From Chiloscyllium plagiosum (Eukaryota): a stretch of 33,635 nt of DNA. Numbering within the stretch: the first letter of the stretch is position 1; each line of letters begins with the position of its first letter. Positions 3,977-31,959 of the stretch are shown here, one piece after another. The position numbers and the translations under genes were made by a program. Location of the stretch: the NCBI RefSeq assembly GCF_004010195.1, contig NC_057718.1:94924702-94958336 (forward strand), in the 5' to 3' direction. The notes beneath the pieces are model-generated. The model worked only from the letters and a program-made list of their open reading frames with translations. It was not told the DNA's origin and searched no databases.

Positions 3977-4259
3977 AGTGCCAGAGACACGGGTTCAATT
4001 CCCGACTCAGGCGACTGACTGTGTGGAGTTTGCACATTCTCCCTGTGTCTGCGTGGGTTTCCTCCGGGTACTCCGGTTTCCTCCCACAGTCCAAAGATGT
4101 GCGGGTCAGGTGAATTGGCCATGCTAAATTGCCCGTAGTGTTAGGTTAAAGGGGTAAATGCAGGGGTATGGGTGGGTTGCGCTTTGGCAGGTCGGTGTGG
4201 ACTTGTTGGGCCGAAGGGCCTGTTTCCACACTAAGTAATCTAATCTAATCTAATCTAAT
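3977..4259 (+). mobile_element. 5'-truncated HE1-type SINE with (CTAAT)n tail
   Basis: B box gggttcaattccc, V-domain ggtttcctccgggtactccggtttcctcccacagtccaaagatgtg, and tail taatctaatctaatctaatctaat. It splits the host sequence cacattta|atgcattg. Confidence 0.92.
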
Positions 4260-4516
4260 TTAATGCATTGTCTGAGCTGTGATGACACCTATTATTAGAT
4301 AGGCTGACTCCACCTTGAGAATTAATTCTGGCATTTACATATTAAAGAACCTAAACCACCATATCCCATGATGATGAAAGACTTAATCTAATTTTTTTTA
4401 AGAACTATTACCTGGTGATATGCGATTTTTAACTAAAGTTGTTTAATATATCATTACAACTCCATGACATTGTAACACTTTTGCTATTAATTCTGTCGTA
4501 TGGTCATGTTCCAAAC

Positions 4517-25865: not shown

Positions 25866-28008
25866 TCGCAAGAGTCTCCCTACTGGCAGGAAGGTGATTT
25901 GAAGTGAGTCTACTTCAAAACCAGGAGCATCTGGAGTAAGGTGGGTGAACTTGCAGCATAAGTTGGCACCTGGGACTTTAATGTTGTGGTCATTTCGGAG
26001 ACATGGATAGAGCAGGGACAGGAATGGTTGTTGCAGGTTCCAGGGTTTAGATGTTTCAGTGAGATGGTAAAAGAGGAGGAGTGTGGCATTGTTAGTGAAG
26101 GACAGTTTTACGGTGGCAGGAAGGACGTTTGATGAGGACTCGTCTACTGAGGTAATATGGGCTGAGGTTAGAAACTGGAAAGGAGAGGTCACCCTGTTGG
26201 AAGTTTTCTATAGGCCTCTGAAACATTCTAGAGATGTAGAGGAAAGGACTGCAAACATGATTCTGGATATGAGCAAAAGTAACAGGGTAGTTGTTATGAA
26301 GGACTTTAACTTTCCAAATATTGACTGGAAGCGCTTTAGTTTGAGTACTTTAGATGGGTTATTTTTTGTCCAATGTATGGAGGGTTTCCCTCGATAGGCC
26401 AACAAGAGGCAAAGCCACATTGAATTTGGTAACCAGGCCATGTGTGAGATTTGAAGGTAGGTGAGCACTTTGGTGATAGTGACCACAATTTGGTTACGTT
26501 TACTTTAGCAATGGAAAGGGATAGCTAAAAACCTCAGGGCAAGAATTATAGCTTAAGGAAAGGAATTATGATGTGATTAGGCAAGATTTAGGTTGCACAG
26601 AATGGGGAAGAAAACTGCTGGAGATGGGCACAATTGAAATGTGGAGCTTATTCAAGGAACAGCTACTTGATAATTATGTACCTGTCAGGCAGGGAGGAAG
26701 TGGTTGAGCAACGTAGCCATGGTTTACTAAAGAAGTTGAATCTCTTGTCAAGAGGAAGAATGATGCTTACGTAAAGAGACATGAAGGCTCCATTAGGGCA
26801 CTTGAGAGTTACAAGTTAGCCAGAAGGGACCTAAAGAGACAGCTAAGAAGAGCCAGGAGGGGACATGAGACGTCTTTGGCTAGTAGGATCAAGTAAAACC
26901 CTAAAGCTTTCTATAGGTATGTCACAATTAAAAGAATGACTAAGTAAGATTGGGGCCAGTCAAGAACAGTAATGGGAAGTTGTGTGTGGAGTCTGAGGAG
27001 ATAGGAGAGGCACTAAATGAATATTTGTCATCAGTATTCACACTGGAAAAAGACAATGTTGTTGAGGAGAATACTAATATACAGGCTATTAGACTAGATG
27101 GGATTGAAGTTCATAAAGAGGAGATGATAGCAATTCTGGAAAGTGTGAACATAGATAAGTCCTCTGGACCAGATGGGATTTATCCTAGGATTCTCTGGGA
27201 AGCTAGGGAGGAGATTTTAGAACCTTTGGCTTTGATTTTTATGTCATCATTGTCTACAGGAATAGTGCCAGAAGACGGGAGATAGCAAATGTTGTTCTCT
27301 TGTTCAAAAAGGGGAGTAGAGACAACCCTGGTAATTATAGACCAATGAGCTTTACTTCAATTGTGTGTAAAGTGTTGGAAAGGATTAGAAGAGAGAGGAA
27401 TTAAAATGATTTGGAAAGGAATAATTTGATTAAGGATAGTCAGCACGGTTTTGTGAAGGGTAGGTCGTGCCTCACAAACTTTGAGTTCTTTGAGGTGACC
27501 AAACAGGTGGATGAGGGTAAGGCTGTTGATGTGGTGTATATGGATTTCAGTGAAGCATTTGATAAGGTTCCCCATGGTAGGGTATTGCAGAAAATACGGA
27601 GGCATGGGATTGAGGTGATTTAGCGGTTTGGATCAGAAATTGGTGAGCTGAAAAGAAGACAGAGGGTGGTGGTTGATGGGAAATGTTCATCCTGGAATTC
27701 AATTTCTAGTGGTGTACCACAAGGCTATGTTTTCGGGCCACTGCTGTTTGTCATTTTTATAAATGATGTGGATGAGGGCGTAGAAAGATGGGTTAATAAA
27801 TTTGCAGATGACACTGAGATCGGTGGAGTTGTGGGGAGTGTTGAAGGATGTTGCCGAGTTGTGAGCAGTGCCGAGGGACATAGCTAAGCTGCAGAGCTGG
27901 GCTGAGAGGTGGCAAATGGAATTTAATGTGGAAAGGTGTGAGATTATTCACTTTGGAAGGAGTAACAGGAATGCAAATTACTGGGCTAATGTTAAGATTC
28001 TTGGTAGT

Positions 28009-28999
28009 TGTTGTGGTTCTGTTCGCCGAGCTGAAAGTTTTTGTTGCAAACGTTTCGTCTTGCTCACACACACACACAAATGGGAATAGAGAGGAAATCC
28101 ACACACACAGACCAAGTCCTAAACTATGAAAGTAACCACCCCAACACACACAAACGAAGCTGCATCAGGACACTATTCAAAAGGGCCACAACACACTGCA
28201 GTACACCAGAACTGCAAAAAGAAGAAGAGGAACACCTATACAAGGTATTCGCCAAAAACGGAGACCCGCTCAACTTCATCAACAGATGCCTAAGAGAAAG
28301 ACCACGGAACAAGGACATACCACAACCAAAAGGACTAGCAACACTACCATACATCAGGAGCATCTCGGAACTGACAGCCAGACTACTGCGACCCCTAGGA
28401 CACATAACGGCACACAAACCAACAGCCACGCTCAGACAACAACTCACCAGAACGAAGGACCCGATACCCAACATGAGCAAAACCAATGTAGTGTACAAAA
28501 TACCATGCAAGGAATGCACAAAACACTATATAGGACAAACAGGAAGACAGCTAACAACCCGCATACATGAACATCAACTAGCCACGAAACGACACGACCA
28601 GCTATCCTTAGCAGCCACACACGCAGACAACACACGCAGACAACAAGCAACATGAATTCGACTGGGACAACACTACTATCATAGGGCAAGCCAGACAGAG
28701 AACAGCCAGGGAATTCCTAGAGGCATGGCATTCATCCACAAACTCCATCAACAAACACATCGACCTGGACCCAATATACCAACCACTACAGCGGACAGCT
28801 GAAACTGACAACTGGAAGCGGCAGGGACAGACCACTATAACACCGGAGGAAACATCAAAGAAGCGCTTCGCAGGAGGCTCCCAAGCACTGATAATGTCGC
28901 CTAGCCAGGAGACGAAACGTTTGCAACAAAAACTTCCAGCTCGGCGAACAGAACCACAACAATGAGCACCCGAGCTACAAATCTTCGCACAAACTTTGA
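28009..28999 (+). mobile_element. Penelope-like element (RT thumb and GIY-YIG) with an inverted tail copy at its 5' end
   Basis: 12-bp TSD attcttggtagt (27997-28008, 29000-29011). ORF RKSTHTDQVLNYESNHP...NVVYKIPCKECTKHYIGQTGRQLTTRIHEH. 28009-28060 is the reverse complement of 28910-28961. Confidence 0.93.
28885..28924 (+). ncRNA. Minimal hammerhead ribozyme motif (one core mutation)
   Basis: gca-CTGATAA-T-GTCgCC-tagcca-GGaGAC-GAAA-CGTT-tgc: helix I gca/tgc and ACGT palindrome. CUGANGA is changed to CUGAUAA. Confidence 0.6.
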
Positions 29000-29693
29000 A
29001 TTCTTGGTAGTGTGGATGAGCAGAGAGATCTCGGTATCCGTGTACATAGATCCCTGAAAGTTGCCACCCAAGTTGATAGGGTTGTTAAGAAGGCATACGA
29101 TGTGTTAACTTTTATTGTTAGAGGGATTGAATTTTGATGCCATGAGGTCGTGTTGCAATTGTATAAAACTCTGGTGTAGCTACACTTGGAATATTGTGTA
29201 CAGTTCTGGTCACCACATTATAGGAAGGATGTGGAAGCATTGGAAAGGATGCAGAGGAGGTTTACCAGGATTTTGCCTGGTATGGAGGGATGGTCTTATC
29301 AGGAAAGGCTGAGGGACTTGTGACTGTTTATGTAAGAAAGAAGGTTGAAAGGAGACTTAGTAGAGACATACAAGATGATCAGAGGATTAGATAGGGTGGA
29401 CAGGGAGAGCCTTTTTCCTTGGATGGCGATGGCTAGCATGAGAGGACATAGATTTAAATTGAGGAGTGATAGGACAGATGTCAGACTAAGTTTCTTTATT
29501 CAGAGAGTAGTAAGGGCATGGAACACCCTGCTAGCATCAGTGGTAGACTTTCCAACCTTAAGGGTATTTAAATAGATTGAATAAACATATGGATGATAAT
29601 GGAATAGTGGAGGTTAGATGGGCTTCAGATTGGTTTCACAGCTCGGTGAAACATCGAAGGCTGAAGGGCTTGTACTGCACTGTCATGTTCTAT

Positions 29694-29962
29694 TCCAGTT
29701 CCACCTCTGCTTTAGACTAAATGGCGTACCGTAGTGGATGCACCTCCAGACTCGATGGTTGAACATCTGACTTCAGCAGTATTTTAATTTCAACTCCTTT
29801 CATTTCCACCAGGATTCCTGTGAAGTCATCTTTATACTTGTCCAGGATGTCTTGTAAACTCCTGCTTGAGTCCGCTCCAATTTTTGTAACCAGGCGTATC
29901 TGACAAATGCAAGGTTTTTTGCCTTGTACAATGTATAGTGGTGATTCTGGACATGAGTCCCT
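29694..29962 (-). mobile_element. Gypsy pol fragment (protease-RT linker)
   Basis: PLYIVQGKKP...LQDILDKYKDDFTGILVEMKGVEIKILLKSDVQP...YAI*SKAEVELE, typical of the region preceding Gypsy RT. Confidence 0.7.
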
Positions 29963-30740
29963 TAAATTCATTTGTGGCATGAGGACGTCACTGGCTAGGC
30001 CAGCATTTATTCTCCATCCCTGACGATCCAGAGGGCATTTAAGAGTCAACTATATTTTTGTGGGTCTGGAGTCACATGTAGGCCAAATGCAGGTAAGGAT
30101 GGCATTTTCTTCCCTAAAGGGCATTCGTGAATCTGATGGGATTTTCTTGACAAAATGTTATGAAGGTAGAAGGGGTACTGTAATTCAAGAGAGTTGAAGG
30201 ACTTAGCAAGCACACAGAGTGCTGGAGAATTTACAATGTAACATTTGGTCCAGCAGCTAGCAGTACCTGAGTTGCTATGAGACCAAAACAAATTCAAATT
30301 CAGCCAACCAGTTTAAATTATGCCTCATGATACTAAACTCCAATCAAGTTTAAATTTGGTATTTTGACACTATTAAAACCAGTGAACGATCTGATGATAA
30401 GTTGAGCAATTGGAGGAGAACTGCCAAGCTCCCAATATATGCAGACTGCCCGCAGAATAGCTCTCATAAAGGTACCTTTATCTATCAACAACCTGTGGAA
30501 CAGAAGTCCAAAGAAGAAGACAGAAGAAGATATAAAGATAAGATTTGACAGCTGGCTGGTTTTTAAATTTGAATTTTTTGGTAAAGCTTAATCAGGGGTT
30601 TTTATCAGACCAGTATTAAAGAATGGTAAGTAAAAGATAGGTTTGAGAAAGGATTTGTAACCAGTTGTTAGTTAACTATTCTCTATTAGACTGTCAAAGA
30701 AAAAAAAAAGTTGTTAATTTTTTAACAACTTTGGGATAGT

Positions 30741-31273
30741 CATAGAGATGTATAGCACGGACGTAGACCCTTCGGTCCAACTCGTCCATTCCAACCAGAT
30801 AACCCAACCCAATGTAGTCCCACCTGCCAGCACCTGGCCCATATCCTTCCAAACCCTTCCTATTCATATATCCATCCAAATGCCTTTTAAATGTTGCAGT
30901 TGTACTAGACTCCACCACTTCCTCTGGCAGCTCATTCCATACACGTACCACCCTCTGAGTGAAGAAGTTGCCTCTTAGGTTTCTTTTATATCTTTCTCCT
31001 CTCACCCTAAACCTATTCCCTCTAGTTCTAGACTCCCCACCCCAGGGAAAAGATTTTGTCTATTTATCCTATCCATGCCTCTCATGATTTTATAGACTCT
31101 ATAAGGTCACCCCTCAGCCTCCGACACTCCAGGGAAAACAGCCCCAGCTTATTCAACCTCTCCCTACATCTCAAATCCTCCAACCCTGGCAACATCCATG
31201 TAAATCTTTTCTGAACCCTTTCAAGTTTCACATCTTTCCGACAGGAAGGAGACCAGAATTGCATGCAATATTC
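30741..31273 (-). mobile_element. CR1/HER1 LINE 3' fragment
   Basis: ORFs 31082..31264 and 30694..31005 ([21 protein letters not shown]..., RGNFFTQRVVRVWNELP); tail at the left. Confidence 0.93.
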
Positions 31274-31626
31274 AACCTCATTGATCCTGCCAGTAGCATA
31301 TGCTTGTCTTAAAGATTAAGCCACTCATGTCTAAGTACAGTAAAACTGCGAATGGCTCATTAAATCAGTTATGGTTCCTTTGATCGCTCCAAACATTACT
31401 TGGTTAACTGTGGTAATTCTAGAGCTAATAAATGCAAACGAGTGCTGACCTGTGCAGGGATGCATGCACTTATCAGACCAAAACCAATCCAGGCTCACCC
31501 AGCAGCTCTGGTGACTCGAGATAACCTCGGGCACATCACAAGTCCTTGTGACGGTGACGTCTCGCTCGAATGACTGCCCTATCAACATTTGATAGCACTT
31601 TCTGTGCCTACCATGGTGACCACAGG
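31274..31626 (+). rRNA. 18S rRNA 5' fragment (pseudogene, about 350 nt)
   Basis: acct..ttgatcctgccagtagcatatgcttgtcttaaagattaagcca, aaactgcgaatggctcattaaatcagttatggttcctttgatc, ctgtggtaattctagagctaata, tgccctatcaac and gcctaccatggtgaccac are universal eukaryotic SSU motifs in order. It carries substitutions and a deletion between two GTAC repeats near 31335. Confidence 0.95.
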
Positions 31627-31959
31627 ATAGTTCTTGGCCTCTCGAATTTTAACAGATTACAGCATAGGTTAAATCTTTTCTGTGTTGCTGGTTTAAATTA
31701 GCAGGGGGTTTACACCGTGTCATAACAAACGGCAGTGGTTTCATGGTCAGTAGAGCTCTTAATTCCAGATTTTCATTAAGTTCAAATTCCACCATCTGCT
31801 GTGGCAGGATTCAAACCTGGGTTCCCAGAGCATTACCTGTGTCCCTGGATTGACAGTCCAGAAATAATACCATCAGGCCATTTCCTCTCCATTGTTCCAT
31901 CTTGGCAGGCTTCAATGGTAGTGCCCTTTATTTCTCCCTGTAGATTGATTTGAGAAATA

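Follow-up and report, generated by a model that had tools for sequence, protein, structure and literature searches.

Seven chimeras of snRNAs with L1 or SVA in opposite orientation were described by Doucet et al. (2015), who drew a two-RNA twin-priming model for L1 with U1, U2, U5 and U6; in the same account L2 and RTE LINEs form U6 chimeras only by template switching, and a single U6/CR1-like copy in turkey is uncharacterised (PMC4476161). L1 chimeras with antisense 5S rRNA, U5 and tRNA halves, in which the start of the RNA lies at the junction, were added by Law and Burns (2026), whose study concerns human L1 only, whose 28S chimeras are mostly same-direction and whose main text contains no occurrence of '18S' (PMC13174262). 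The 5' inversion of L1 is similar in that each target strand primes once, the second end shows microhomology and the junction is 5' to 5' (PMC2912911, PMC4245944).

In human cells such inversions are found almost only with L1, with target-site duplications (TSDs) of 10–20 bp, and twin priming has been regarded as peculiar to L1 and dependent on a long overhang; the element ZfL2-1 gave no inversions in cell assays, and the 5-nt overhang of L2/CR1-type LINEs may be too short to prime the second end (PMC4245944). The TSD lengths collected in that source peak at 3–5 bp for L2 and CR1 (a second-hand value), range over 1–8 bp for ZfL2-1 and are 13–15 bp for L1 (PMC4245944). A further class, the tailless retropseudogenes of Noll et al. 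(2015), stands alone within a TSD and tracks relaxed L1; none are given for chicken or platypus, only two tailless 18S cases, both 5'-truncated, are given for human, and sharks are not mentioned in the main text (PMC5322556).

An opposite-orientation CR1/18S insertion

The window, by which is meant the whole stretch of 33,635 nucleotides analysed here, comes from the 3.56 Gb assembly of the shark Chiloscyllium plagiosum (G000:C9:94924702-94958336). The features around the insertion are:

30156..30733, plus strand: left part of the host LTR-like repeat, beginning TGT (high-copy family; best other copies 76–87%)
30734..30740, plus strand: left TSD copy, 7 bp, whose last 3 bases also belong to the CR1 tail repeat
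30741..31273, minus strand: 3' end of a 5'-truncated, dead CR1-type LINE, with ORF2 C-terminus, 3' stem-loop and octamer tail
31274..31274, no strand: single junction base, either a mutated 18S nt 1 or an untemplated base
31275..31626, plus strand: 18S rRNA nt 2–366, 3'-truncated and tailless, with one 13-nt deletion
31625..31631, plus strand: right TSD copy, whose first 2 bases are common with 18S nt 365–366
31632..31727, plus strand: right part of the host LTR-like repeat, ending ACA, which in other copies directly continues the left part

An earlier, sequence-only reading of this DNA had drawn a minus-strand CR1 3' fragment fused without spacer to the 5' end of a plus-strand 18S fragment, all within a single duplication inside an LTR. 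This anatomy stands: the halves abut, with one base between them, at 31274, which may be a mutated 18S nt 1 or an addition. GGATAGT flanks the whole unit (30734-30740 and 31625-31631) and can be extended on neither side, its overlaps with the CR1 tail (3 nt) and with the 18S continuation (GG, 2 nt) are both real, and the unit lies within an LTR-like repeat that runs from 30156 to 31727 (TGT...ACA). The minus-strand piece at 30741-31273 reads as an ORF2 C-terminus with stops and frameshifts followed by a 3' UTR.

The 18S piece matches Rfam RF01960 with 120 bits and is 87% identical to this genome's rDNA. In the alignment to that rDNA it begins at nt 2, at about the mature 5' end as had been claimed, and contains no 5' ETS, which indicates an RNA template. 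It is 3'-truncated and untailed, with a 2-nt match to the target end at nt 366 that is weak when taken alone. Should both overlaps be counted as part of the insert, the duplication in the strict sense comes down to 2 target bases, yet both insert ends still fall in the same 7-bp site; between random 12-nt end zones, seven or more common bases occur in 0.3% of trials. There is no second duplication at the inner CR1/18S junction.

The CR1 (minus) and 18S (plus) parts thus lie on opposite strands, joined by their 5' ends, in the layout of a two-template twin-priming chimera. As in the twin-primed snRNA/L1 chimeras, a 3'-truncated cellular RNA stands opposite a 5'-truncated LINE within one TSD, with short complementarity between RNA and target end; the carrier, however, is CR1-type and not L1, the partner is 18S, the TSD is 7 bp and the RNA part measures 365 nt, against 36–48 nt for U5 (PMC4476161). 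L1 5' inversion uses one RNA, whereas the window insertion uses two (PMC2912911, PMC4245944). With the template-switch chimeras (U6/L1, U6/L2) it shares a cellular RNA at the truncated LINE 5' end and a single TSD, but those are same-direction and it is opposite (PMC4476161); same-direction 18S chimeras do occur elsewhere in this genome (L031, L043, L046). Like the tailless retropseudogenes, the 18S part is a 3'-truncated, untailed, internally primed copy (PMC5322556), but it does not stand alone in its duplication, being separated by 534 bp from the left 7-mer, which is on the far side of the CR1.

By anatomy, the window insertion belongs to the two-template twin-priming chimeras. The sequence-only reading had offered this mechanism as one not yet established, when it has already been described for L1 (PMC4476161, PMC13174262); within the literature searched, what is new is the carrier (CR1-type, and also Penelope-like, see below), the 18S partner and the lineage. 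No report of an opposite-orientation CR1/rRNA chimera was found in that mainly open-access literature. The insertion itself is a real, non-functional, dead pseudogene with no sign of function.

The CR1-type element

The best 39 other copies of the window CR1 piece are 89–91% identical to it. The tail unit of this family is ACTCTATG, which matches the chicken octamer at 7 of 8 positions, the CR1 tail repeat of chicken being ATTCTRTG (PMC2612034). The stem-loop in the 3' UTR folds at -22.5 kcal/mol, a value without shuffle control, and aligns with the 3' end of a SINE at 4150-4260 of the window. A 3' stem-loop common to SINE and LINE is likewise a feature of the HE1/HER1 pair given for sharks (PMC3747384), and by this sign the window's repeats resemble those of cartilaginous fish. 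The element therefore has the stem-loop shared with a partner SINE that marks the stringent type.

The ORF2 C-terminus of a sister copy matches chordate reverse-transcriptase clusters, with no match to a Pfam family or a PDB entry, and we take the window ORF2 C-terminus to resemble those of CR1 elements. The assignment to CR1 as against L2 rests on the 3' features and is accordingly provisional.

A second CR1 family is represented in the window by a long plus-strand copy at 26050-29700. This is broken at approximately 28008-29010 by an element whose inverted arms measure 53 bp and whose duplication measures 12 bp; it appears Penelope-like by eye and has no Pfam match.

One insert in one host site

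The empty site was judged from paralogous copies of the host repeat, not from an orthologous allele. With the two flanks aligned separately, both window 7-mers fall on one position in 16 of 19 other host LTR copies, as a single insert requires; of the three exceptions, one is truncated, one has lost the site to a deletion and one carries a different insert. The exact 7-mer is present in 12 of the 19, and two 7-mers within 45 nt in none. Host LTR sequence between the CR1 and 18S parts, which would have pointed to separate insertions, is absent, and no host sequence has been lost.

A search with the junction, in which 40 of 4183 candidates were scored, listed 41 matches, and among these the window alone spans both halves. 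A SINE family with an rRNA head and a CR1 tail is thereby rejected, and the orientation would also be wrong for it. Divergence of the two halves is similar: 30 of 519 non-CpG sites in the CR1 half differ from the majority of nine other copies (5.8%), and 22 of 314 in the 18S half differ from this genome's rDNA (7.0%; Fisher p 0.55). Fourteen other 18S fragments range from 0.5 to 12.8%. Equal divergence appears compatible with joint arrival, without being proof of it, and is a weak test of age.

Three of the 19 host LTR copies (L056, L059, L064) are followed by a stretch resembling a primer-binding site, presumably of the tRNA-Pro type. The host repeat may be a retroviral or Gypsy-type LTR, of which the window holds a solo copy.

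A second CR1/18S insertion and the genomic survey

A search with 18S as query gave 42 matches (best 40 of 54 candidates scored), namely the window, five rDNA-array contigs, two second hits and 34 dispersed loci. Flanks were examined for 32 of these 34 loci, 24 of them with about 1.5 kb and eight with 60–180 bases, and since two loci (L082 and L085) record one event, 31 independent other 18S fragments result. The survey of rRNA fragments for adjacent, inverted CR1 sharing a TSD, as proposed with the original observation, yielded one more case among the 31.

This second head-to-head insertion lies at G000:C4:114337000-114339239 (L084, L083, L076) and involves a different CR1 family. An antisense ORF2 interior adjoins 18S nt 2–112 with no spacer and no microhomology, and the CR1 tail lies about 2.1 kb away, near the place predicted from the window's copy of that family. 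ATACAA (6 bp) stands at both ends, its AT being common with the 18S end. The case is known from its two ends, the middle 1.56 kb lying outside the sequence examined, and the copy exceeds by about 200 bp the length that the window's copy predicts. The 18S part differs at 8 of 111 positions and the CR1 in pairwise comparison at 15 of 134 and 66 of 382, so that the ages of the parts look compatible with each other.

As the window case was chosen for its layout, only the C4 case constitutes an independent test. CR1 density amounts to 33 fragments in 140,868 bases, or at least 0.23 per kb, which is a lower bound drawn from a five-sequence library with 8% coverage. At this lower-bound density, the probability is 1–4% that among 30 further fragments one would by chance adjoin the 5' end of a CR1 on the opposite strand. 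Six common bases occur between random end zones in 1–3% of trials; under a reading as two insertions, the TSD is not independent evidence.

The same head-to-head layout was found with the 3' piece of a Penelope-like element in 2 of the 31 fragments (L042 and L082), both with 14-bp TSDs. The orientation of this piece is taken from the window's copy, in which a GIY-YIG frame is followed by that repeat. At L042 the unit occupies L042:1403-1643 and its parts are 2.5% and 8.8% diverged, the latter against one other copy, while at L082 both parts are about 1% diverged. L085 carries the junction and right flank of L082 on another contig with a longer Penelope-like left end, which somewhat weakens the TSD reading of L082. 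Tailless solo 18S copies with TSDs occur at L032 and L033, and L049 is probably another. The same-direction chimeras mentioned above join 18S to a poly(A)-tailed element (L031, with a 13-bp TSD, L043 and L046).

Proposed mechanism and alternative explanations

The window insertion is probably the product of one two-template event (twin priming) started by a CR1 element, whichever polymerase worked on the second end. The single host site, the equal ages, the start at mature nt 2, the lack of an inner duplication and the recurrence on C4 all speak for a single event. In this scheme the CR1 endonuclease would nick the plus strand after the 7-mer, and the freed 3' end, pairing with three CR1 tail bases that are still visible, would prime a 533-nt copy of the CR1 RNA. 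The other strand would be cut 7 nt away, its 3' end would pair with GG inside mature 18S rRNA, and the second cDNA would run to the 18S 5' end. The cDNAs, whose blunt 5'-to-5' join is seen, may have been united when the reverse transcriptase jumped to the 3' end of the 18S cDNA, which was already anchored, or else through end joining, and fill-in would then yield the 7-bp duplication. Microhomologies at both outer ends are what priming from both cut strands predicts. Against the scheme, the pairing with 18S amounts to just two bases. Folding of 18S nt 1–450 did not show the truncation points to be consistently single-stranded: nt 112 is open and nt 366 paired.

The earlier proposal that two RNAs were reverse transcribed from the two cut strands and joined 5' to 5' therefore survives as the best reading, but its attribution of the 18S copy to the CR1 enzyme is less secure: a Penelope-like element has the same layout and a poly(A)-tailed element makes 18S chimeras, so that another polymerase may have been at work. 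Even so, a single event in which CR1's own reverse transcriptase copied both RNAs is the best explanation, with about an even chance of being correct. In its favour, besides economy, the TSDs of 7 and 6 bp in the window and C4 cases lie near the short-TSD class and far from that of L1, and the poly(A)-tailed element's chimera at L031 has a 13-bp TSD by comparison. Against it, 49 CR1 fragments whose 5' end could be read included no case of ordinary 5' inversion of the element's own RNA, so that CR1 does not obviously twin-prime in cis here. What looked like a cis inversion at L074 is a copy of one CR1 family lodged in ORF1 of a different family.

It is distinctly less probable that, within the same single event, CR1 gave only the cut and the first strand while some other polymerase copied 18S from the second end. 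This could be a host repair polymerase able to copy RNA, for which polymerase theta is presumably a candidate, or the reverse transcriptase of a relaxed, L1/Tx1-like element with a poly(A) tail. The Penelope-like cases (2 of 31, with 14-bp TSDs) show that the layout is not tied to CR1, although each carrier using its own enzyme would explain the recurrence equally well. The same-direction chimeras (L031, L043, L046), the solo tailless copies (L032, L033), the published link of tailless copies to relaxed L1 (PMC5322556) and the lack of cis inversions in the 49 CR1 fragments also fit a second polymerase, but two machines would be needed at one break, and the poly(A)-tailed element is known from its 3' end alone, its L1/Tx1-like clade being putative. 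Two separate insertions are improbable, whether a tailless 18S copy with a 7-bp TSD came first and a CR1 then landed flush with its 5' edge and made no duplication of its own, or the CR1 preceded the 18S. In favour of this reading are the high density of CR1 pieces (at least 0.23 per kb), the solo 18S copies within TSDs, CR1 insertions here with almost no duplication (L015 and L026, by eye), 18S pieces nested in CR1 (L027, L034) and the fact that a scan over many windows selects such coincidences. The coincidence would, however, be needed twice, in the window and on C4. Both times the CR1 would have to lie flush with 18S nt 1–2 and in opposite orientation to it, the inner join would have to be free of duplication and deletion, and the parts would have to agree in age, when one further abutment alone has the 1–4% chance given above before these extra conditions.

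Capture at the DNA level, in which repair would have added a fragment of rDNA or of an older 18S pseudogene to the 5' end of the CR1 insertion, is very improbable. Pieces of rDNA that include ETS are indeed dispersed in the genome (L027, L028, L030, L045), but in both CR1 cases the 18S begins at mature nt 2 and includes no ETS base, and no 18S match listed exceeds 88% identity to the window copy, bar two short ones at 94%, so that no donor pseudogene is seen. An assembly artefact joining the end of a CR1 contig to rRNA-like sequence is just as hard to credit: the 18S part is 87% identical to rDNA and not near 100%, the halves are equally decayed, and the duplication agrees with the unoccupied site in other copies of the host repeat. 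Three of the 24 sequencing runs listed contain at least half of the words sampled, a figure that carries no weight here, since about three quarters of the stretch consists of high-copy repeat.

Implications

For retrotransposon specialists the insertion is a modest surprise, because the CR1/18S chimera recurs and runs against the stated model. It can be suggested, with rather more doubt than confidence, that abundant rRNA routinely serves in sharks as the template for extending the second cut end, no matter which element made the cut, as the layout is seen with two CR1 families and a Penelope-like element. If so, two-template twin priming would be general to target-primed integration or to host RNA-templated repair, not a speciality of L1, and stringent LINEs with short overhangs would move unrelated RNAs though rarely inverting their own. 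Second-strand synthesis and the formation of the 5' junction of LINE insertions are still poorly understood. CR1-type head-to-head 18S chimeras with 6–7-bp duplications would show that stringency governs the first priming only and would give stringent LINEs a route for copying host RNAs into genomes; they would also provide a countable fossil marker for testing which enzyme is responsible for the second strand. The single insertion itself is junk; it is the class that matters.

Other 18S fragments and associated elements

The poly(A)-tailed element (L031, L043, L046, L030, L032, L071:2960-4370) stacks in tandem, is present several times on an rDNA contig shortly after 28S begins, and in some copies has a common target in another repeat. 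It is possibly a target-preferring L1/Tx1-like family, a putative assignment made from its 3' end.

At L036, L038 and L034 an 18S 5' fragment is followed by an A-run and then by a SINE in the same direction. These loci may record oligoadenylated rRNA decay fragments caught by template jumping; no convincing TSD was found at L036 or L038, and none was seen at L034. L034 was also considered as a head-to-head case, since a short CR1 tail meets 18S nt 125, and was rejected because the CR1 resumes on the far side. Similarly, L027 is not a same-direction 18S/CR1 chimera, as CR1 lies on both sides of the 18S, which places the piece within a CR1 copy; at both loci the surrounding CR1 is the older element. 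L047, in which two 18S pieces lie tail-to-tail, does not have the twin-priming layout.

Seven 18S fragments (L032, L033, L044, L048, L049, L031, L038) start at about the mature 5' end and stop at nt 217–229, a possible truncation hotspot. In the window itself, about 1.1 kb to the right of the insertion, the segment 32800-33635 is rich in GC and CpG and is probably a gene promoter with a first exon. Finally, L026 carries 18S nt 1–428 together with about 170 GC-rich bases between two inverted copies of the window's host LTR family.
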